DNA of 64,000 nucleotides, taken from UHGV virus genome UHGV-1455077; one strand, given 5' to 3'. Below the pieces are notes generated by a model that saw only the letters and a list, made by a program, of their open reading frames with translations, did no database searches and had not been told where the DNA came from. The position numbers were made by a program, and so were the translations under genes. This document shows positions 3,307-44,780 of this stretch, one piece after another. This stretch comes from a virus. The number at the start of each line of letters is the position of its first letter. Positions within the stretch are counted from its first letter, which is position 1.

Positions 3307-3714
3307 ATGATGACAGATACAAGTAAATTACCTATTTCACGTGTTGGTGAATTAAATGATAAATTAAGTGAAATTAATAATCATCTTAATTTATTATCTA
3401 ATAAAATAACTGCATTAGAAAATAATTTATCTAATAAAAATTATGTAATGCAATATCCAACTATTACCGAAACAGGAAGAATAACAATTCCTGTCAATAC
3501 TGATTATACATTAACAGAAAATTGCTGGGTATGGTGGGGAAATACTGTTTATGTAGGAGATAGAATTTTTTATATCAATGGTATTATAATAGGAAGGTCA
3601 TATGGTCGTTCTGGAAGCTGGGAAGAATTTAATTCAATGTTTATCCCATTAAAAGCAGGAAATGTTATTAGACATACAGGAGATAATTCTATATGTTACA
3701 TTTATCCTAATTAA
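3307..3714 (+). CDS. hypothetical protein (MMTD-family small protein; paralog of 42669..43058)
   Basis: 135-aa ORF with N-terminal MMTDxSK and a coiled-coil-like segment followed by a Trp/Gly-rich C-terminus. Shares N-terminal signature with 42669..43058. Confidence 0.5.
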   Translation: MMTDTSKLPISRVGELNDKLSEINNHLNLLSNKITALENNLSNKNYVMQYPTITETGRITIPVNTDYTLTENCWVWWGNTVYVGDRIFYINGIIIGRSYGRSGSWEEFNSMFIPLKAGNVIRHTGDNSICYIYPN

Positions 3715-3720
3715 TAACAA

Positions 3721-3742
3721 AGCTCCCAAATGGGAGCTTAAC
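3721..3742 (+). terminator. hairpin aagctccca-aat-tgggagctt followed by T-rich tract
   Basis: Perfect 9-bp inverted repeat immediately after the stop codon of 3307..3714. Confidence 0.5.
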
Positions 3743-3744
3743 TT

Positions 3745-4055
3745 ATTTATGTATTATTTCAGTCGCAGTCATTTCTGTTGCAAGGATAACTGTTTCCCCA
3801 CTAAACATAAAAGCCTTCATCCGTTAGGATTAAGCAGCAATTACATTATAGTTATAGTTAACGTTTTCGTTAGCATTCATTTTATTTTGAACCGATATTG
3901 GTGGTATCTCGCCAGGTACATTATAGCCATTTTCAATAATGTTCAAAATTCCGTCCGCCCCTAATACATTGATTTTTCATAATATTTTCCTGGTGGAGCG
4001 GCTGGGAGTTAAACCCAGGTCACTATCATTTACTTTGGGATAATTTATCAGCACC
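3745..4055 (-). ncRNA. ssrA: tmRNA (ssrA-like), apparently circularly permuted (two-piece). Acceptor piece ends with CCA at 3981; coding piece starts GGGGCGG at 3951; tag ORF at 3874..3829.
   Basis: - strand reads ...CCTGGGTTTAACTCCCAGCCGCTCCACCA (T-arm, 3' acceptor strand, CCA), almost identical to the E. coli ssrA 3' end CGGGTTCAACTCCCGCCAGCTCCACCA. After 30 nt it reads GGGGCGG (complementary to CCGCTCC with one G-U). Then GCT AAC GAA AAC GTT AAC TAT AAC TAT AAT GTA ATT GCT GCT TAA = ANENVNYNYNVIAA*, and GCTGCTTAATCCTAAC resembles E. coli GCAGCTTAATAACC. Exact 5' and 3' boundaries not determined. Confidence 0.6.
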
Positions 4056-4064
4056 ATTCAAAAT

Positions 4065-4095
4065 TATTTATAAATTATTTTATTTTAATTGTCAA
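4065..4095 (-). promoter_or_regulatory. sigma70-like promoter (TTGACA-N16/17-TATAAA) oriented into the tmRNA gene
   Basis: - strand TTGACAattaaaataaaataattTATAAA. Member of a recurring intergenic TTGACA...TATAtt motif family. Confidence 0.4.
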
Positions 4096-4156
4096 TAAAA
4101 TAATTTAGGACATAAATACAGTTATAAGCAATTCACAAATTTAATAAAGGATTATA

Positions 4157-4960
4157 ATGATATATTATGTTTATCAAATAACAAATAAAATTAATAATAA
4201 AATTTACATTGGAAAAAGAAAATATAAAGGAGAAAATCCTTTATTAGATTCATATATGGGGTCAGGAAAATTAATTAAAGAAGCAATTAAAAAATATGGA
4301 AAAAATAATTTTCAAAAAAATATTATTCAAAGTTTTGATAATGAAAATGATGCTTTTAAATTAGAAAAAGAACTTGTAACAAAAGAATTCTGTAACAGAA
4401 AAGATACTTATAATATTCACGAAGGTGGTACAGGAAGTTTTTCTCACATTAATAATAAACCAATTGAAAAAAGAGAAAATATTATAGCTGTTAGAAAATT
4501 ATTAAATTCAGGAGTAAAATTTGGTGGAAAAAAATATTTTACAGAAGAAACTTATCAAAAAATTAGTAATTTTAATAAAGAACGATGGAAAACTTGGAAA
4601 GAAAAACCAGAATTAATGCCAGATTTTTATATAAAACCTCGTACAGAAAAATTTAAACAACATTTATCAGAAATTTTTAAAGGTCAAAATAATCCTAATT
4701 TTGGTAAACATTGGTATATTCATAAAAAAGCTATTAATATTAATGAAAAGAAAATGTTTTTTGATAATGAAATACCACAAGGTTTTATTACAGTAAAAGA
4801 ATGGAAAGATTTACATAAAAATAAGAAAAATAAAGCATATGGAAAACATTGGTATAATGATGGTAAACAAAATTATTTTTTATCCCCAGATGATGAAAAA
4901 ATTAAAATATTAAGTAAAGGGCGTATTGGTACTCTTTTTAAAAAAATTGAAAGTAATTAG
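4157..4960 (+). CDS. GIY-YIG family homing endonuclease (freestanding)
   Basis: N-terminus IYYVYQITNKINNKIYIGK...KYG matches the GIY-YIG module (compare I-TevI GIYQIKN..KVYVGS). 267 aa, Lys-rich C-terminal DNA-binding-like region. Confidence 0.7.
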   Translation: MIYYVYQITNKINNKIYIGKRKYKGENPLLDSYMGSGKLIKEAIKKYGKNNFQKNIIQSFDNENDAFKLEKELVTKEFCNRKDTYNIHEGGTGSFSHINNKPIEKRENIIAVRKLLNSGVKFGGKKYFTEETYQKISNFNKERWKTWKEKPELMPDFYIKPRTEKFKQHLSEIFKGQNNPNFGKHWYIHKKAININEKKMFFDNEIPQGFITVKEWKDLHKNKKNKAYGKHWYNDGKQNYFLSPDDEKIKILSKGRIGTLFKKIESN

Positions 4961-4997
4961 AAAAAGATTTATATTAAATTTTAATGGTTCAAAGTTT

Positions 4998-5113
4998 ATT
5001 CGTTTTGCAAGCTGGTGGTAATTGGAATGATTCATCTAACTACGGAGTTGGTTCACGTAATAGTAACAATTCCCGTGCTAATTTGAATGACAATAACTCG
5101 GTGCGGGGCTTGA
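4998..5113 (+). repeat. DGR template repeat (TR)
   Basis: attcgttttgcaagctggtggtaattggaatgattcatctaactacggagttggttcacgtaatagtaacaattcccgtgctaatttgaatgacaataactcggtgcggggcttga. Matches the reverse complement of 6675-6790 except at 18 TR-adenine positions and one T. In the target frame TR encodes QAGGNWNDSSNYGVGSRNSNNSRANLNDNNSVRGL (Asn AAY-rich). Confidence 0.85.
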
Positions 5114-5119
5114 TATAAT
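5111..5119 (+). promoter_or_regulatory. extended -10-like element TGATATAAT at the TR 3' boundary (possible RT promoter)
   Basis: cttgaTATAATc immediately after the TR/VR homology ends; about 120 nt upstream of the RT start. Confidence 0.25.
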
Positions 5120-5238
5120 CTCTTTTTTGAGCATTAGCTGAATTTTGAACCTTGTCTTAACAGGCTAAACATCAAAAACCAAAAAATAATATTAGTAAAA
5201 GAATTTGAACATATTATTTTTTATTAAGAGTAAAATAA

Positions 5239-6570
5239 ATGAAAAGAATTAATAATTTATGGCACGAATTTACTTCTCAAGAAAATTGGTTTATTGCTCG
5301 TAAAAGAGCTTTACAAGGCAAAGTTAAAAAGTTTTGTGTAAAAGCTATTATGAGAAAAGGTGATGAGTATTTAGAAAAAATTCGCCAAGAAGTAATTAAT
5401 GGAACTTTTGAATTTAAAGGTTATAAAGAACATACAATTTATGAACCTAAAGAAAGAAAAATATATGTTGCTCGGATTGAAGAAAGAATTTATCATTGGG
5501 CATCAATGATGATTGCTGAACGAATTTTTGAGCCAACATTTATTTATGATAGTTATTGTTGTCGTAAAAATAAAGGTCAACATAAATGTTCTGCCAGATG
5601 TAAAGAAATTGTTAAACATAATGATTATTGTTTAAAATTAGATATTTCAAAATTTTATCCAAATATTAATCATAACATATTAAAAGATTGTTTAGCAAGA
5701 AAAATTAAAGATGTAAAATTTTTAAATGCTTTATATGCTATTATTGATAGCCATAATAAAGATACTGGTAAAGGAATACCTATTGGAAATTATTCCTCGC
5801 AATTTTTTGGCAATATTTATATGACTAAATTGGATATGTTTGTTAAACATACTCTAAAATGTAAAAATTATTTAAGATATTGTGATGATTTTTGTCTATT
5901 TTCTAATGATAAAAAATACTTAAATTGGTGCAAAGAAAAAATAATTGAATTTGTTACTAATGAACTTGATATGAAATTAAGTAAATGTGATTTATTTAAA
6001 ACAAAGCAAGGTGTAGATTTTGTTGGATATAGGCATTTTCCACAATATACTTTAGTTAGAAAAAGAACTGCTAAAAAAGTTAAGAAAAGATTATTAAAAA
6101 TTCAATATAAATTGAATAATTGTAATCTTACACAAAAAGAACTTTTTAGAATGAATGGACAAGTTGCCAGCTCTTATGGTTGGTGTAAACACGCTGATTC
6201 ATATAGATTTATGAAAAAATATAAAATAGAAGAAAGCTTAAGGGAGATAATTATGAGATATTCAGAATTTAAAAATAAATTACATACAAATAAAATGTTA
6301 TCAATGAAAATAAACGATTTTATTAATAAAGAAATTACAATAACTGGTTGGGAATATTGTAAAAAGAAAGATGATGATGAAAAAGTTAAAACTGTTAAAA
6401 TCTTTTTACGTTATGATAATGAAGAAAAAATCATTATTACAAAAGCATCAGTTATTATTCGTGATTTAGAAGAAATTTCTCAATTAGAAAAAGAAGAAAA
6501 TACAAAAATATTTCCTTTTGAAACTGTATTGAAAAAAGATACAAAACGGAATTATTTTTATTTTGAATAG
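5239..6570 (+). CDS. DGR reverse transcriptase (Brt-like) with ~110-aa C-terminal extension
   Basis: Collinear with Bordetella phage BPP-1 Brt. N-terminus MKRINNLWHEFTSQENW vs MGKRHRNLIDQITTWENL. IYEPKERKIY vs VYEPKPRLIS. YDSYCCRKNKGQHK vs YTYACRPDKGTH. LKLDISKFYPNI vs LKSDFSKFFPSI. DGR-specific GIPIGNYSSQFFGNIY (IGxxxSQ replaces QGxxSP). Catalytic RYCDDFCLF (YxDD). GVDFVGYRHFP thumb motif. Confidence 0.85.
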   Translation: MKRINNLWHEFTSQENWFIARKRALQGKVKKFCVKAIMRKGDEYLEKIRQEVINGTFEFKGYKEHTIYEPKERKIYVARIEERIYHWASMMIAERIFEPTFIYDSYCCRKNKGQHKCSARCKEIVKHNDYCLKLDISKFYPNINHNILKDCLARKIKDVKFLNALYAIIDSHNKDTGKGIPIGNYSSQFFGNIYMTKLDMFVKHTLKCKNYLRYCDDFCLFSNDKKYLNWCKEKIIEFVTNELDMKLSKCDLFKTKQGVDFVGYRHFPQYTLVRKRTAKKVKKRLLKIQYKLNNCNLTQKELFRMNGQVASSYGWCKHADSYRFMKKYKIEESLREIIMRYSEFKNKLHTNKMLSMKINDFINKEITITGWEYCKKKDDDEKVKTVKIFLRYDNEEKIIITKASVIIRDLEEISQLEKEENTKIFPFETVLKKDTKRNYFYFE

Positions 6571-6660
6571 AGTTGGGCATCACAAGGATGCCCTGCTTAT
6601 AGTATTAAGACCGCACAAGGCGGTCTAAAAAAGAAGGATTTGAGTTTATCACTCAAATCC
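6571..6660. promoter_or_regulatory. three consecutive hairpins between the convergent RT and target genes, immediately 3' of VR
   Basis: gggcatcacaaggatgccc (7-bp stem), agaccgcacaaggcggtct (7-bp stem), ggatttgagtttatcactcaaatcc (10-bp stem overlapping the target stop codon). Confidence 0.5.
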
Positions 6661-7728
6661 TTTAGCATTAGCTGTCAAGCCCCGCACCGAGCTACCGTCA
6701 AGCAAACTAGCACGGGAATAGTCACTCACACGCGAACCAACCCCGCAGTTAGATGAATCACCCCAATAACCACCAGCCCGCAAAACGAATCCTTCACCGT
6801 AAAAAGAACCTTTACCCATATCAGTATTAATTACTGTCCAACCACTTCCACCAGATGCACCAGTTGAATTTAAATATTGCCATAAAGCACCACAACAATC
6901 TTCAATACCATAAACAGAAATCATTCTTCTGCCAGCAGTATCTACGTGTCCACCAGTTGTTACAGGGTCAGCCGCACCTGAAATTGCAGTTCCTTGATTT
7001 GAACCAAATGCATAAACAGTAAATTCATTATCATTTGCTAAATGTTTTCCAACTGAAAATAAATCTTCAACGTGATTTTGATAATAACGTGTATCTGTAA
7101 TTGTACCACCAAATACTGATTTTGTATTTAAACCAGTTCCTGATTGTAAATAAATATCACACCATTTATCAATGGCATCAATATATGCCATACCATCAAC
7201 ATCAGCAAATCTCGGACGGAATGAAATACAAGATACTGAATTTGGTAAAATATCACCTGCATTATATCCTGATAATAAATGACCAGAAATAGTTCCAACA
7301 TTTGCACAAACAGTATGGAATGAAGATAGCCATTGAGTATTTGCTGTGGTATAACCAGTTGGAGCATCCGCATTTAATGAACAAATTAATTCTTTATCAG
7401 AAGTAATATAAATGTAATAAGTTTTTCCTGCCTGTAATGATGAACCAGTATCTAATATTGAAACAGGATTAATTTCTTTTGCTTCATAATTTTCATAATT
7501 AACCAATTCATTATTAAATACTAATGGAATATTACAAGGTTCAATAACAATTGTAGATTTATCAAAACAATTAGTTTTTCCTAATCTAAATAATTGTGCG
7601 TATGATTTACCTTTAATTGTAGTATCTAATTCTTTAATATGAACAAATCTAAAAGTTGGAGCAAATCCGCCTAATAAAGTTTGTAATCCATATATACGAT
7701 TTAATTGTACTTTTGAAATATCTATCAT
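6649..7728 (-). CDS. DGR target (variable) protein; C-terminal C-type-lectin/FGE-like fold carrying the VR; probable receptor-binding (tail fibre tip) protein
   Basis: 359-aa ORF whose last ~40 codons (FVLRAGGYWGDSSNCGVGSRVSDYSRASLLDGSSVRGL) are the VR. C-terminal GG.W...G pattern typical of CLec-fold DGR targets. AATAAATA late box upstream (7754-7761). Gene has noticeably higher GC than its neighbours. Confidence 0.8.
   Translation of the reverse strand: MIDISKVQLNRIYGLQTLLGGFAPTFRFVHIKELDTTIKGKSYAQLFRLGKTNCFDKSTIVIEPCNIPLVFNNELVNYENYEAKEINPVSILDTGSSLQAGKTYYIYITSDKELICSLNADAPTGYTTANTQWLSSFHTVCANVGTISGHLLSGYNAGDILPNSVSCISFRPRFADVDGMAYIDAIDKWCDIYLQSGTGLNTKSVFGGTITDTRYYQNHVEDLFSVGKHLANDNEFTVYAFGSNQGTAISGAADPVTTGGHVDTAGRRMISVYGIEDCCGALWQYLNSTGASGGSGWTVINTDMGKGSFYGEGFVLRAGGYWGDSSNCGVGSRVSDYSRASLLDGSSVRGLTANAKGFE
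6675..6790 (-). repeat. DGR variable repeat (VR) at the 3' end of the target gene
   Basis: Sense strand attcgttttgcgggctggtggttattggggtgattcatctaactgcggggttggttcgcgtgtgagtgactattcccgtgctagtttgcttgacggtagctcggtgcggggcttga. Identical to TR except where TR has A (18 sites) plus one T-to-G. GC-rich 3' end ctcggtgcggggcttga shared with TR, then the sequences diverge. Confidence 0.85.
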
Positions 7729-7753
7729 TCTAATACCTTTTGCTTATATCAAA

Positions 7754-7761
7754 TATTTATT
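7754..7761 (-). promoter_or_regulatory. late-promoter-like AATAAATA box upstream of the DGR target gene
   Basis: - strand ...tttcAATAAATAtttgatataagcaaaaggtattagaATG. Confidence 0.4.
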
Positions 7762-7766
7762 GAAAT

Positions 7767-7800
7767 AAAAATCCACCAGCAATATTGCTGGTGGATTTTT
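7767..7800 (-). terminator. hairpin aaaaatccaccagcaatattgctggtggattttt with flanking A/T runs (bidirectional)
   Basis: 12-bp perfect inverted repeat between 7827..8228 and the DGR target gene. Confidence 0.55.
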
Positions 7801-7826
7801 TAGTATAACAACAATGAAAAATTTTA

Positions 7827-8228
7827 TTACTTTTCTTTTTTAATCAATTCAATCGTCTGTTTACCAAGTTCAGTAATCATTGATTTAACAATATCTTCTT
7901 CGGTTTCACAACGATATTCATTATAAGAACCTTCAGCATTGTGATATTTTAAATTACAAACTATTTCTTCTAAATCTTCAGATGGCAATGTACTTTCATA
8001 AACTTCATCTGTATGTTTATCTTTAATAAAAATTGTAAGTTCATATTCATCTAAATGAGCTTCAATGATTTCAAAATCATTTGACAATTTCATAGGAAAT
8101 GTCTGCTCTACCCCATTAACTGTTTTAACTTCGGTTGAATTGCTAAAAGCAAACCAACTGACACAGCCAACCAAAAATGCAACTAAAATTGTTAAACCTA
8201 AAACCTGAATTTTTTTAATCATCTTCAT
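7827..8228 (-). CDS. putative lipoprotein
   Basis: N-terminal signal peptide with lipobox LVGC (MKMIKKIQVLGLTILVAFLVGC). Confidence 0.5.
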   Translation of the reverse strand: MKMIKKIQVLGLTILVAFLVGCVSWFAFSNSTEVKTVNGVEQTFPMKLSNDFEIIEAHLDEYELTIFIKDKHTDEVYESTLPSEDLEEIVCNLKYHNAEGSYNEYRCETEEDIVKSMITELGKQTIELIKKEK

Positions 8229-11026: not shown

Positions 11027-11102
11027 TGGCACTCCCAGAGGGATTCTAACCCCCAATTTAACGTCCGTAGCGTTATGGTTTATACAATTAGCCTATGGGA
11101 GC
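11027..11102 (-). tRNA. tRNA-Arg (anticodon ACG), CCA encoded
   Basis: GCTCCCA acceptor paired with TGGGAGT. Anticodon stem TAACG/CGTTA, loop CTACGGA. T-arm GGGGG-TTAGAAT-CCCTC (non-canonical T-loop). 3' GCCA. Confidence 0.5.
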
Positions 11103-20573: not shown

Positions 20574-20592
20574 CTCCTAAATAATTTTTATA

Positions 20593-20665
20593 TAGGCGAA
20601 GTGGGATTTGAACCCACAAAATTTAGATTTTGAATCTAACACGTATGCCATTCCGTCATTCGCCC
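20593..20665 (-). tRNA. tRNA, anticodon CAA, class I (short variable arm); identity uncertain (Leu-decoding anticodon on a non-Leu scaffold)
   Basis: GGGCGAA...TTCGCCT acceptor. Anticodon stem TTAGA/TCTAA, loop TTCAAAA. T-arm GTGGG-TTCAAAT-CCCAC. 5-nt variable loop. No encoded CCA. Confidence 0.5.
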
Positions 20666-20714
20666 AATTAGTTTATTTAGTATATCTTAAATATAAAATT
20701 AAAACAAAATATTT

Positions 20715-24858: not shown

Positions 24859-24945
24859 TGGTGGGCTTGGTGGGACTCGAACCCACAAGAGAATACTCCC
24901 GACAGATTTTAAGTCTGTTGCGTATACCAATTCCGCCACAAGCCC
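24859..24945 (-). tRNA. tRNA-Leu (anticodon TAA), class II, CCA encoded
   Basis: GGGCTTGTGGCGGAATTGGTA...ACAGA-CTTAAAA-TCTGT, long variable arm, GGGTTCGAGTCCCAC, CCAAGCCCACCA. Confidence 0.7.
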
Positions 24946-24957
24946 AATGTTTATTAT

Positions 24958-25045
24958 TGGTGGGCATACCGAGAGTCGAACTCGGATGGAGATTACCCCC
25001 GTCAGATTTTAAGTCTGATGCGTCTACCAATTCCGCCATACGCCC
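24958..25045 (-). tRNA. tRNA-Leu (anticodon TAA), second copy with divergent sequence, class II, CCA encoded
   Basis: GGGCGTATGGCGGAATTGGTAGACGCATCAGA-CTTAAAA-TCTGA, long variable arm, GAGTTCGACTCTCGGTATGCCCACCA. Confidence 0.65.
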
Positions 25046-25097
25046 AATTATTTTTTATGAATATATTTATATCATTTATTTTAAATAATGTCAACAA

Positions 25098-25349
25098 TTA
25101 TTTTTTACTATTTGCTAATTTATTTAAAAATTTCATCAATTGTTTTTTATCACAATCTAACAAATCATCAATATTTTTATAACCCATATGATTTAATAAA
25201 TCGTGATAACATCCTTCACAAACTTCAATACCAAAAAGATTAAACATATTTTCGTCATCATCTTCTGGACATAAAAAACATTTTCCAGTTTTATTTAAAT
25301 CATCTTTTTCATATGCAGTCTTTTTAAATTTATTTAAAAAATTAAACAT
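25098..25349 (-). CDS. small zinc-ribbon-like protein
   Basis: CFLCP...CEGCYHD Cys4-like pattern. Confidence 0.4.
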   Translation of the reverse strand: MFNFLNKFKKTAYEKDDLNKTGKCFLCPEDDDENMFNLFGIEVCEGCYHDLLNHMGYKNIDDLLDCDKKQLMKFLNKLANSKK

Positions 25350-25395
25350 TAATTTCTCCTAATTATATAAAAATCTCCATAATTTGTATATGGAG

Positions 25396-25432
25396 ATTAT
25401 ATTATAAATTATTAATTGTCAATATATTATTT
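25396..25432 (-). promoter_or_regulatory. sigma70-like early promoter
   Basis: - strand TTGACAattaataatttataaTATAAT immediately downstream of the tRNA-Cys 3' end. Confidence 0.35.
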
Positions 25433-25519
25433 TGGAAGTCTGGACGAGATTCGAACTCGCATCATCTTTTCAGATATACGGTTTTGCAGACCGCTGTATA
25501 GCCATTCTACCACCAGACT
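25433..25519 (-). tRNA. tRNA with GCA (Cys) anticodon, U73 discriminator and an unusually long (~17-nt) variable arm; CCA encoded
   Basis: AGTCTGG/CCAGACT acceptor. Anticodon stem GCGGT/ACCGT, loop CTGCAAA. Variable arm ATATCTGAAAAGATGAT. T-arm GCGAG-TTCGAAT-CTCGT. 3' TCCA. Confidence 0.5.
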
Positions 25520-25526
25520 TATAAAA

Positions 25527-25601
25527 TGGTACGGTAAGTGGGAATCGAACCCACATATTTAGCTTGGAAGGCTAACGTAATAGCCATTATACCATTACCG
25601 C
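25527..25601 (-). tRNA. tRNA-Gly (anticodon TCC), CCA encoded
   Basis: GCGGTAA...TTAGC-CTTCCAA-GCTAA...GTGGG-TTCGATT-CCCAC-TTACCGT-A-CCA. Confidence 0.6.
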
Positions 25602-25603
25602 AT

Positions 25604-25678
25604 TGGAGCGACTTGCGAGAATCGAACTCGCATCTAAACCTTGGCAAGGTCTTGTATTAACCATTATACGAAAGTCGC
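25604..25678 (-). tRNA. tRNA-Gly (anticodon GCC), CCA encoded
   Basis: GCGACTT...AGACC-TTGCCAA-GGTTT...GCGAG-TTCGATT-CTCGC-AAGTCGC-T-CCA; U8, A14, GG18-19, U33, A37 all present. Confidence 0.65.
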
Positions 25679-25689
25679 ATATATGAAGG

Positions 25690-25985
25690 TTCTTTTCACT
25701 CCGATTAAAAGAACCTACAACTTAACCTAACGGTTGGATAACCTTTATTAACGTATGCTATTTATCCAACAAGTATTCACATACAAAGGTTAGCTTAATG
25801 ATTACATACTACTTTATCGTCTATGTTACAGCCTTGGGCAAGGTTAGGTCAACTGTGTCTTACTGTTTCTGTCTTTCGGTTATCACGACTTACCTAAGAA
25901 AATTCCTATTAGCCTTTTGGATGGTTGCCCCTATCATTCGTGTGTTAGATTTATGTATGTAATCTCCCAAACATAGAATGGGAAA
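25690..25985 (-). ncRNA. ORF-free, hairpin-rich, relatively GC-rich ~300-nt segment inside the tRNA cluster; candidate structured RNA of unknown class
   Basis: No ORF on either strand. GC clearly above flanks. Stems ggttcttttaatcggagtgaaaagaacc (9 bp), ttggataa...ttatccaa (8 bp), ccttgcccaagg, tccca...tggga. Sits between tRNA-Trp and tRNA-Gly on the same strand. Confidence 0.3.
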
Positions 25986-25987
25986 CT

Positions 25988-26061
25988 TGGCAAGGGCAAA
26001 TTGATTTGAACAATTACTGCAAATTTTGGAGATTTGAGTGCTACCGTTACACTATACCCTT
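25988..26061 (-). tRNA. tRNA-Trp (anticodon CCA), CCA encoded
   Basis: AAGGGTA/TGCCCTT acceptor (one G-U). D-arm GTGTAACGGTAGCAC. Anticodon stem CAAAT/ATTTG, loop CTCCAAA as in E. coli tRNA-Trp. T-arm AATTG-TTCAAAT-CAATT. 3' GCCA. Confidence 0.6.
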
Positions 26062-43145: not shown

Positions 43146-44780
43146 TTACATTCCCATTTGTGATGGTTTCATTGCCGACATTAACTTTAAATTAGTTTCT
43201 GTATCATCAATAATTAATCCTTCAACAGTAAGCAATGAACCAGCAATAGATGCTCCGTTTTCCAATGCACAACGAACAACTTTCGTTGCATCAAGAATAC
43301 CTGCTTCAATTAAATCACAGAATTTATCATTACGAGCATCATAACCATATGAATAAGTTTCATTATCTTGAACCTTTTCTACAATTACTTCACCAGTTTT
43401 TCCTGCATTTTCAGCAATTTTTTTCATTGGAGCAGATAAAGAATTAAGAACAATACCATATCCTGTCCATTCATCATCTGTTATAGCAAAATCAAGATTA
43501 TTACTAATTTCTTGATATGCTCTTACAAGAGAAACACCACCACCTGGTAAAATACCTTCTTCAAGTGCCGCTCTCGTTGCACATACAGCATCTTCAACAC
43601 GGTCTTTCTTTTCTTTAACTTCGGTTTCTGTTGCACCACCGACTTTAATAACAGCAACGCCTTTAGTCAATTTTGCAAGTCTTTCACGAAGTTTTTCTTT
43701 ATCATATGAAGATTCAGTATTTTCAATTTCAGCAATTAATTGTTCAGCTCTTTCAGAAACAGCATTTTTATCACCGTGTCCACCAATAATAACTGTTTCA
43801 GTTGGTGAAATACGAATTTTATCACAAGAACCTAATGATTCTATTTTAACATCTTCTAATTTATATCCCATTTGTGTTGAGATAAATTCACCACCTGTTA
43901 AAATTGCAATATCTTCCATTTGAAATTTACGAATATCACCAAATGAAGGAGCTTTAACTGCACAAACTTTTAAACCTGCTTTCATTCTATTAATTACTAA
44001 TGTTGACAAAGGTTCATCAGCCATTTCATCTGAAATAAGAACTAATGGTTGACCAATTTGCATAACATCTTCAAGCAATGGCAAAATAGATTGAATTGTA
44101 TTAATTTTACCATCATATAAAAGAATCAATGGATTATCATATTCAACTAATTGTCTTTCTGCATTAGTCATAAAATATGGAGAAAGATAACCTTGGTCAA
44201 ATTGTAAGCCATCAACAACTTCCAATTCAGTTTTTAATCCTTTTGCTTCCTCAACCGTGACAACACCACGTTCACCAACAATTTCAATAGCTTTAGCAAT
44301 AAAATCTCCAATTTCAGCATCGCCGTTTGCAGAAATAGTTGCTAATTGTCTAATTTCTTCATTAGTTTCAACTTTTTTAGAATGAGATTTTAATACTTCA
44401 ACAACATCTTTAACAGCTATATTAATACCTTGCTGAATTTCAGTTGATTTACGACCTTTTGAAATCCATTTTAAGCCTTCTTCAGCAATTGCAGATGCAA
44501 TAATACAAGTAGCTGTTGTTCCATCACCTGCATCTCTATTTGTTTTTTCAGAAGCCTGAACAATTAATTTTGCTCCTTCACCTTCTGCATCCATTAAAGT
44601 AATAGATTTTGCAACTGTTACACCATCTTTAGTAACTTTTGGTGTTCCCCAAGACTGTTGAATTGCAATTGTTCTACCACCAGGGCCTGATGTTTGTGCA
44701 ACAACATCAGAAACTGTTTTTAATCCTTTATATAGCTCTGTACGAGCTTCATCGCCTTTAATAACTTTTTTAATTGGCAT
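43146..44780 (-). CDS. groL: chaperonin GroEL (Hsp60)
   Basis: 544 aa, collinear with GroEL: AVKAPGFGDRRK-like [21 protein letters not shown]-like [10 protein letters not shown]-terminal GGM-type tail MGM. Confidence 0.9.

Follow-up and report, generated by a model that had tools for sequence, protein, structure and literature searches.

Diversity-generating retroelements (DGRs) form a well-known class of systems, and the closest described one for the present case is that of Bordetella phage BPP-1, where the genes and repeats are arranged as mtd with its variable repeat (VR), avd, the template repeat (TR) and the reverse transcriptase (RT) gene brt. To our knowledge, mechanistic work to date rests wholly on the Avd-dependent BPP-1 enzyme (bRT). 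Here we analyse a cassette in a stretch of 64,000 nucleotides of the virus genome UHGV-1455077 (hereafter the window), for which adenine-restricted differences between two repeats had been noticed from the sequence alone (the original prediction). We consider it highly probable that the locus is a functional DGR of an uncultivated, AT-rich jumbo phage of ~285 kb. Because this is a well-known type of system that public annotation already recognises, and of which the locus is one more member, the finding is by itself of modest interest: a textbook DGR signature that adds a tropism-switching cassette, in a jumbo phage. The part worth following is that the cassette lacks a recognisable Avd and has an RT fused to a domain with a predicted oligonucleotide/oligosaccharide-binding (OB)-like fold, a domain found across many phage DGRs.

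The similarities to BPP-1 are extensive. The RT is homologous to bRT, its closest relative of solved structure (PDB-code: 8ub7, E = 3.5e-35), and the target is a homologue of the tail protein Mtd with the same fold. The TRs are of comparable length (116 nt here, 134 nt in BPP-1) and rich in AAY codons, with A-specific mismatches to the VR, a GC-rich 3' end in both repeats, a hairpin just past the VR and a structured spacer RNA that separates TR from RT. Unlike BPP-1, however, the window has no detectable Avd, its RT carries an extra OB-fold-like C-terminal domain, and the target gene is convergent, being located downstream of the RT on the opposite strand, whereas in BPP-1 it lies upstream on the same strand. 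Also missing is the 21-bp near-repeat of BPP-1 known as IMH/IMH* (initiation of mutagenic homing). The spacer resembles the Rfam motif RT-14, while that of BPP-1 belongs to Phage_DGR, and the phage itself is large (~285 kb) with 26% GC.

Three further groups of DGRs share the C-terminal domain or the absence of avd. With the RTs of hankyphage-type Bacteroides phages (e.g. BX-TP1, p00) the RT can be aligned, C-terminal domain included, over 98% of its length, but with an identity of only 26%; such a phage is temperate and ~43 kb long and has another target protein and another cassette order. In the archaeal virus ANMV-1 and the Methanosarcinales virus vir525 a free-standing homologue of the domain (~98 residues) follows directly after the RT and the target is Mtd-like (PMC4372165); in contrast to the window, the domain is there a separate gene annotated only as hypothetical, the cassette follows the canonical target-TR-RT order and the virus infects an archaeon. 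Finally, architecture A in the DGR survey of Wu et al. 2018 consists of a TR-RT core without avd, and the survey also contains RTs with a post-thumb extension of ~100 residues without a recognised motif (PMC5758913). The extension described here differs in that it can be assigned to a conserved family, which also occurs as a stand-alone gene beside the RT or in the position of avd. According to the same survey, no accessory gene is recognised in roughly one quarter to one third of the known DGRs (29%), and ~20% of DGR RTs continue at the C-terminus into unexplained extensions, which can reach 150 residues (PMC5758913).

The template and variable repeats

A repeat search of the window returned one long inverted pair, TR 4998-5113 and VR 6675-6790, with a length of 116 nt and 84% complementarity. 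The original prediction had placed the pair at 6675-6790, which is correct for the VR but not for the TR. The TR is located in non-coding DNA upstream of a 443-residue open reading frame (ORF), and the VR lies in frame at the C-terminus of the target gene. A search of both strands of the 64 kb, with the A positions of the TR wild-carded and at least 70% identity at non-A positions, revealed no further VR.

Aligned without gaps, the repeats differ at 19 positions (from TR to VR, A>G at 13, A>T at four, A>C at one and T>G at one), in agreement with the 18 substitutions at TR adenines and the single non-A mismatch originally reported; the codon examples and the TR peptide that had been given were likewise found to be right on rechecking. 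With 31 adenines among the 116 bases of the TR, the hypergeometric probability of at least 18 out of 19 mismatches falling on A is 6.1e-12, and the substitutions are thus far from even over the four bases. Adenine specificity is also seen in five related genomes, in which the TR/VR differences are restricted in the same way. The mutated fraction of TR adenines is 58%, in line with the mutation density of ~50% reported for BPP-1 and Bacteroides DGRs. The Asn codons AAT and AAC, eight of which had been counted, in fact number ten in the TR; nine of them are altered, and with 14 of the 19 substitutions they do carry most of the changes. The predicted design without stop codons also stands, as an A>N change can lead to a stop at none of the 38 TR codons, and the theoretical capacity of the template amounts to 4^31 DNA variants or ~7e14 peptides. 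At their 3' ends both repeats share the same GC-rich 17-nt sequence, CTCGGTGCGGGGCTTGA, beyond which they diverge completely.

The non-A mismatch (TR 5061, VR 6727) falls on the third base of a codon (AAT>GTG) and is a synonymous change, as GTT likewise codes for Val. We think it rather unlikely that it stems from a sequencing or assembly error, which had first been proposed as an alternative to drift. A single base in a metagenome-derived sequence could be wrong, and because the change is synonymous, protein identity in other assemblies cannot confirm the base. On the other hand, an independent T>G of the same type is present in the related locus L002 (loci are numbered L001 onwards), again at the third codon position and immediately 3' of a mutated A (GAT>GGG), so that non-A changes make up 2 of 80 differences in four TR/VR pairs. 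Moreover, at least one non-A difference occurs in 23% of curated DGRs (PMC5758913), and the background misincorporation of bRT at U, C and G is 0.4-1.7% (PMC7826257). The frequency of T>G fits such non-A misincorporation and ordinary mutation equally well. RT background error, ordinary mutation and sequencing error are indistinguishable as the origin of the mismatch, and the interpretation of the locus as a DGR is unaffected by any of them.

The reverse transcriptase core and the target protein

The RT ORF is intact, including its YCDD motif, and the DGR signature [I/V/L]GxxxSQ is present as IGNYSSQ. Arg-73 aligns with Arg-74 of bRT and the equivalent of bRT Ile-181 is also kept; these are the two residues shown to promote adenine mutagenesis in bRT (PMC7826257).

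In the target protein, Pfam detects the second domain of Mtd (PF21916, E = 6e-10), PHROGs assigns it to phrog_11262 (tail protein), and a PDB sequence search aligns residues 95-337 with the BPP-1 Mtd chains (E = 1e-15). The AlphaFold model has a pTM (predicted template modelling score) of 0.82. When this model was submitted to Foldseek, five Mtd crystal structures came first (1yu0, E = 5e-23, TM-score 0.65-0.66, 336 columns); next were further DGR variable proteins and C-type-lectin folds of the FGE type. On the basis of Pfam, the PDB sequence search and the predicted fold, the target is a homologue of Mtd; in NCBI nr, proteins from its 90% cluster already bear the title "MAG TPA: major tropism determinant". 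The coordinates of the cassette, together with those of its neighbours, are given in Table 1.

Table 1. Features of the cassette and of the surrounding region in the window.
Feature	Position	Strand	Description
Template repeat (TR)	4998-5113	+	donor; 116 nt, 31 adenines, 10 AAY codons
GC-rich 3' block of TR	5097-5113	+	CTCGGTGCGGGGCTTGA, IMH*-like end; equal to VR 6675-6691; 71% GC vs 26% GC of the genome
Variable repeat (VR)	6675-6790	-	codes for target residues 313-351 (of 359)
Target gene	6649-7728	-	359-residue Mtd-like receptor-binding (tail) protein; C-type-lectin-type variable C-terminus
DGR RT ORF	5239-6570	+	443 residues; Pfam RVT_1
RT core, residues 1-337	5239-6249	+	IGNYSSQ at residues 182-188; YCDD from residue 214; R73
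C-terminal domain fused in frame to RT	6250-6570	+	~105 residues; predicted OB-fold topology b1-b2-b3-alpha-b4-b5; pLDDT 85.8
Candidate promoter	4947-4975	+	sigma-70-like, TTGAAA-17-TATATT; 10/12 consensus matches; ~20 nt upstream of TR
Spacer (Sp) RNA between TR and RT	5114-5238	+	125 nt; long conserved hairpin, UAGUA...GAA internal motifs
Hairpin with CTTGT loop	6575-6593		GGGCATC-ACAAG-GATGCCC; 7 bp; loop CTTGT on VR-sense strand
Hairpin with CTTGT loop	6608-6626		AGACCGC-ACAAG-GCGGTCT; 7 bp; same loop type; conserved in L001-L003
12-bp hairpin and T-run	6634-6662	-	starts 13 nt past VR end; overlaps target stop codon
11-mer directly 3' of VR	6664-6674		AGCATTAGCTG; second copy on + strand at 5130-5140, in spacer
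GIY-YIG/NUMOD3 homing endonuclease	4157-4960	+	SegE/SegH-like; phrog_314, E = 6e-39; between tmRNA and TR
Permuted (two-piece) tmRNA	3761-4099	-	Rfam tmRNA_permuted 87.5 bits, alpha_tmRNA 77.9 bits
tRNA genes	24859-26061, 20592-20666, 11027-11102	-	eight in all
GroEL	43146-44780	-	phrog_5725, E = 5e-152

Variation among related genomes

Six related genomes, in which the RT is ~90% identical, have the same DGR anatomy; their TRs are almost identical, and their VRs differ at the positions of TR adenines. Pattern scans for VR alleles yielded 4 loci from the metagenome and 3 from IMG/VR only, and we therefore compared 29 members of two protein clusters at 90% identity (400 and 314 members). All 29 VR peptides at the C-termini are different, in proteins that are otherwise ~92% identical. 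At least four residue types are found at 12 positions, each of which corresponds to a TR codon that has A as its first or second base. The entropy at these hypervariable positions is 2.27 bits, compared with 0.06 for the other VR codons and 0.07 for the remaining protein, and all four bases occur at the same VR sites across alleles. The comparison of alleles across related phage genomes that had been proposed as a check therefore bears the prediction out: at the population level, hypervariability is limited to codons with a TR adenine at position 1 or 2.

The TR and the VR also co-vary at other bases. Three non-A polymorphisms of the TR (TCA/TCT, TCC/TCT and AAT/AAC) are each matched in the cognate VR in 5 of 5 genomes, and a 1-nt deletion in a G-run that is specific to the window (GCGGGGC instead of GCGAGGGC) is found in both repeats, the reading frame of the target being regained just downstream, beyond the repeat. 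Since lineage-specific non-A variants and an indel of the TR have been copied into the cognate VR, transfer continued after the lineages split. The first and last adenines of the TR (4998 and 5113) are likewise variable among VRs, and the transferred segment is accordingly 116 nt or slightly more, with a cDNA that spans the GC-rich block. Within this block the relatives have an A/G difference between TR (GCGAGGGC) and VR (GCGGGGGC) that is fixed in 6 of 6, while the block of the window is identical in both copies; this fixed difference of the relatives looks like an IMH/IMH*-type difference rather than random mutagenesis.

From these sequence comparisons the DGR looks active in nature. Several points weigh against a functional DGR. 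One of the 19 substitutions falls on a base other than adenine, activity is deduced from the diversity of alleles across related genomes and not inside a single population, and the VR segment of the target model has a low pLDDT (predicted local distance difference test score). In addition, none of 56 ORFs of 85-230 residues in the 64 kb matches the Pfam bAvd families (PF22296 / PF05635) at E <= 1e-3, with BPP-1 Avd and that of locus L076 as positive controls at E ~1e-35. Avd is required by the BPP-1 enzyme. An avd gene could lie elsewhere in the ~285-kb genome, in the ~220 kb beyond the window. The same observations, namely the lack of Avd, the indirect evidence for activity from genome comparison and the non-A substitutions (one in the window and one in L002), could be taken to mean that the locus is a relic, once active and no longer homing, in which the VR differences are old alleles shuffled by phage recombination. 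We regard this as very improbable, because the RT ORF is intact with conserved catalytic and signature motifs, because the TR is conserved and yet no two of the 29 VR peptides are the same, and because the TR-specific non-A variants and the indel have reached the cognate VR in each lineage. An origin without any retroelement, by ordinary mutation of an inverted duplication or by adenine-specific DNA damage or deamination, would explain the predominance of A>G (13 of 18) but is effectively refuted by the presence of A>T and A>C and of all four bases at the same sites, by the fact that one copy never changes and that a DGR-clade RT lies between the two, by the limitation of variation to the first two positions of TR codons that contain A, and by the chance probability of the A bias (6e-12).

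A conserved domain at the C-terminus of the reverse transcriptase

We now turn to the domain that follows the RT core of this DGR. Homologous RTs are mostly ~340 residues long, and a subclade that includes the RT of the window has ~100 extra C-terminal residues. Searches of Pfam, PHROGs and PDB sequences with the domain gave nothing, and as a single-sequence search of 1.8 billion representatives returned 4 hits only, we used a profile hidden Markov model (HMM) of RT C-termini instead. With this HMM the domain is detected in 75 of 88 related DGR loci. It is usually encoded by a gene of ~100 codons directly after the RT gene, is joined to the RT in the window and in 12 loci besides, and is found between VR and TR, the usual position of avd, in about ten loci. 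In locus L008, for example, a separate 97-residue ORF (7010-7303) that overlaps the RT stop codon is homologous to the RT tail of the window. A strong Shine-Dalgarno sequence (AAGGGAG) and an ATG at 6253 inside the RT ORF of the window are kept from the stand-alone form, and the tail domain may therefore also be produced separately. The HMM also matches the hypothetical gene after the RT of ANMV-1 (L099, 3980-4276, E = 3e-20) and residues 351-434 of the BX-TP1 RT (L098, E = 3e-10); it has no match in BPP-1.

Among the 88 related loci a bona fide Avd is present solely in L076 (3337-3666, E = 1e-35), where it lies between VR and TR. L076 and BPP-1, which both have Avd, are without the tail domain, and no examined locus carries both. 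As far as we searched the literature, the family is not described. Taken by sequence and gene order, the tail domain is likely to be an unrecognised accessory factor. That it substitutes for Avd is suggested, but not proven, by synteny and mutual exclusivity in about 100 loci.

Could this family be the missing factor of Avd-less DGRs? It is a concrete candidate, being detectable by HMM, having a confident fold prediction and occurring in culturable hankyphage-type phages. The question of how Avd-less DGRs work thereby becomes directly testable. A possible yield would be a single-polypeptide enzyme, RT plus accessory domain, for engineered targeted mutagenesis.

Arrangement of the cassette

The canonical order of target-VR, TR and RT on one strand is seen in all ~66 more distant relatives with a detected TR/VR pair. 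The order TR-RT followed by a convergent target is confined to the window and loci L001-L003, L006 and L007. A third arrangement is found in two independent contigs, L004 (1-1850) and L005 (1-1870), with RTs 65% and 59% identical: here target, VR, hairpin and RT (+ strand) are followed by spacer and TR on the minus strand. Surveys have recorded DGRs whose components lie on different strands (PMC5758913). Recombination between the inverted repeats TR and VR was considered as the cause of the flip and rejected, since the spacer stays with the TR and the hairpins with the VR; this means that the RT gene alone has been inverted. As a result, the TR RNA of L004 and L005 would run antisense to, and convergent with, the RT gene.

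As a separate observation, locus L083 (903-1202) contains a second adenine-biased pair (TR 1109-1202, VR 903-996), in which A is the base affected in 13 of 14 mismatches. This pair, which may represent a second DGR cassette or a second template, lies ~2.6 kb upstream of the main TR/VR pair there.

Putative cis-acting elements

The candidate promoter upstream of the TR could drive a transcript of TR, spacer and RT; 35 promoter-like sites were found in the region versus 27 expected in shuffles, which makes it weak evidence.

The spacer aligns over the full length of the Rfam motif RT-14 (RF02921) at 5120-5223 with 41.1 bits, under the gathering score of 48.1 (E = 2e-4 in a 351-nt search), and close relatives score below threshold too. 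It thus resembles RT-14 without being a certified member of the family. A consensus fold with L001 and L003-L006 consists of a long hairpin with 10 pairs that show compensatory changes. The stability of the whole TR-spacer RNA is not unusual (minimum free energy z = -0.68), and covariation is found only in the spacer hairpin. The spacers of BPP-1 and L053 match Rfam Phage_DGR and RT-17. RT-14 is among the RT-associated motifs of Weinberg et al., who placed RT-10 in the TR-RT spacer of BPP-1 and speculated that other RT motifs serve other DGRs (PMC5737381).

Three hairpins lie between the RT gene and the VR. The 12-bp hairpin with its T-run is the sole terminator-like match in 4100-7900 and is the intrinsic terminator of the target gene; by analogy it may also correspond to the cruciform of BPP-1 (PMC3240598). 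In relatives the equivalent site is occupied by hairpins of different sequence. The two smaller hairpins are the only ones in the 64 kb with an ACAAG/CTTGT loop. In relatives (L001-L005) this loop is kept, while the stems differ or covary. In L004 and L005, with their RT gene inverted relative to TR and VR, its orientation tracks the VR and not the RT, and the hairpin is therefore part of the target side rather than of RT expression. The roles proposed below for the post-VR hairpins are deduced from such sequence patterns.

The resemblance to an IMH/IMH* pair that had been noted originally holds for the identical GC-rich 3' block followed by divergence; it does not extend to a 21-bp near-repeat like that of BPP-1 after the block. 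Such an element downstream of TR and VR was rejected, as direct-orientation similarity of the TR and VR flanks is not enriched in 67 loci. The 11-mer AGCATTAGCTG occurs, on one and the same DNA strand, both at the edge of the VR and in the spacer, where it lies 16 nt past the TR, and the spacer RNA is consequently complementary to the sense strand of the target at this place. Comparable complementarity between spacer and VR junction, with other sequences, is present in L001-L007, L010, L038, L053, L077 and L064. In a set of 67 dereplicated loci, not all of them independent (about 6-7 families), complementary matches of at least 7 nt were found in 10 of 67 same-locus pairs (P = 5e-5) versus 3.2% of cross-locus controls, and matches of at least 8 nt in 7 of 67 versus 0.6%. 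BPP-1 provides a 9-nt case, involving the 3' arm of the cruciform. That spacer segment belongs to the stem-loop bound by Avd (10.1101/2023.10.23.563531), and the match may therefore have arisen for a different reason. We put forward the complementarity at the VR junction as a biological feature by way of hypothesis only.

Proposed mechanism

By homology with BPP-1, we infer the following biochemical steps. A transcript containing the TR and the structured spacer would be bound by the RT encoded just downstream. The RT would then make a cDNA of the TR, with fidelity at all bases but adenine, opposite which any nucleotide would be inserted. This cDNA would take the place of the VR in the 3'-terminal part of the convergent, Mtd-like tail-fibre gene, by which up to 15 codons of the ligand-binding face could be rewritten, never to a stop. 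The shared GC-rich block would bound homing at the 3' side, and the hairpins just downstream of the VR are probably used. Without Avd, the task of holding or positioning RNA or cDNA for the RT would most likely fall to the RT-fused OB-fold-like domain.

A broader proposal can be made only tentatively, and we find it somewhat doubtful as a whole: the tail domains would form a widespread, unrecognised accessory family of predicted OB fold that replaces Avd in a large clade of phage and archaeal-virus DGRs. Taken with the conserved CTTGY-loop hairpins on the VR side and with the spacer segment that is complementary to the target sense strand at the 3' junction of the VR, this would suggest that the RNA-cDNA complex docks on the target by recognition of single-stranded nucleic acid.

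The phage and its neighbouring genes

The window has a GC content of 25.7% and encodes eight tRNAs, GroEL/GroES, DnaB and other phage genes. Contigs that carry the exact target protein reach 288.6 kb, and related ones in IMG/VR measure 203-282 kb; from the size of these contigs it follows that the cassette resides in an uncultivated jumbo phage. Megablast with 24 kb of the window found no near-identical phage in GenBank, and nothing similar is contained in the GenBank phage collection. The sole match of the cassette in a blastn search is the GIY-YIG gene. This endonuclease gene is kept in the 90% relatives and absent from L006, L007 and the more distant DGR loci, for which reason it was rejected as a component of the DGR.

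Just upstream of the homing endonuclease, the Rfam match indicates that the jumbo phage encodes a transfer-messenger RNA (tmRNA) of the permuted type. It was missed by ARAGORN and lies under a spurious 100-residue ORF (3662..3964). Permuted tmRNAs are also present in L002 (4520-4859) and L003 (4520-4858). The tRNAs comprise three for Leu, two for Gly and one each for Cys, Trp and Arg, six of them clustered at 24.9-26.1 kb. Matches of small ORFs include Cpn10, an RNA 2'-phosphotransferase of the Tpt1/KptA family (E = 2e-49), GreA/GreB and a dNMP kinase, as well as a LuxR-type regulator domain and a response-regulator receiver domain, one ORF each, which may or may not belong to the same protein. 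Auxiliary gene content of this kind is typical of jumbo phages.

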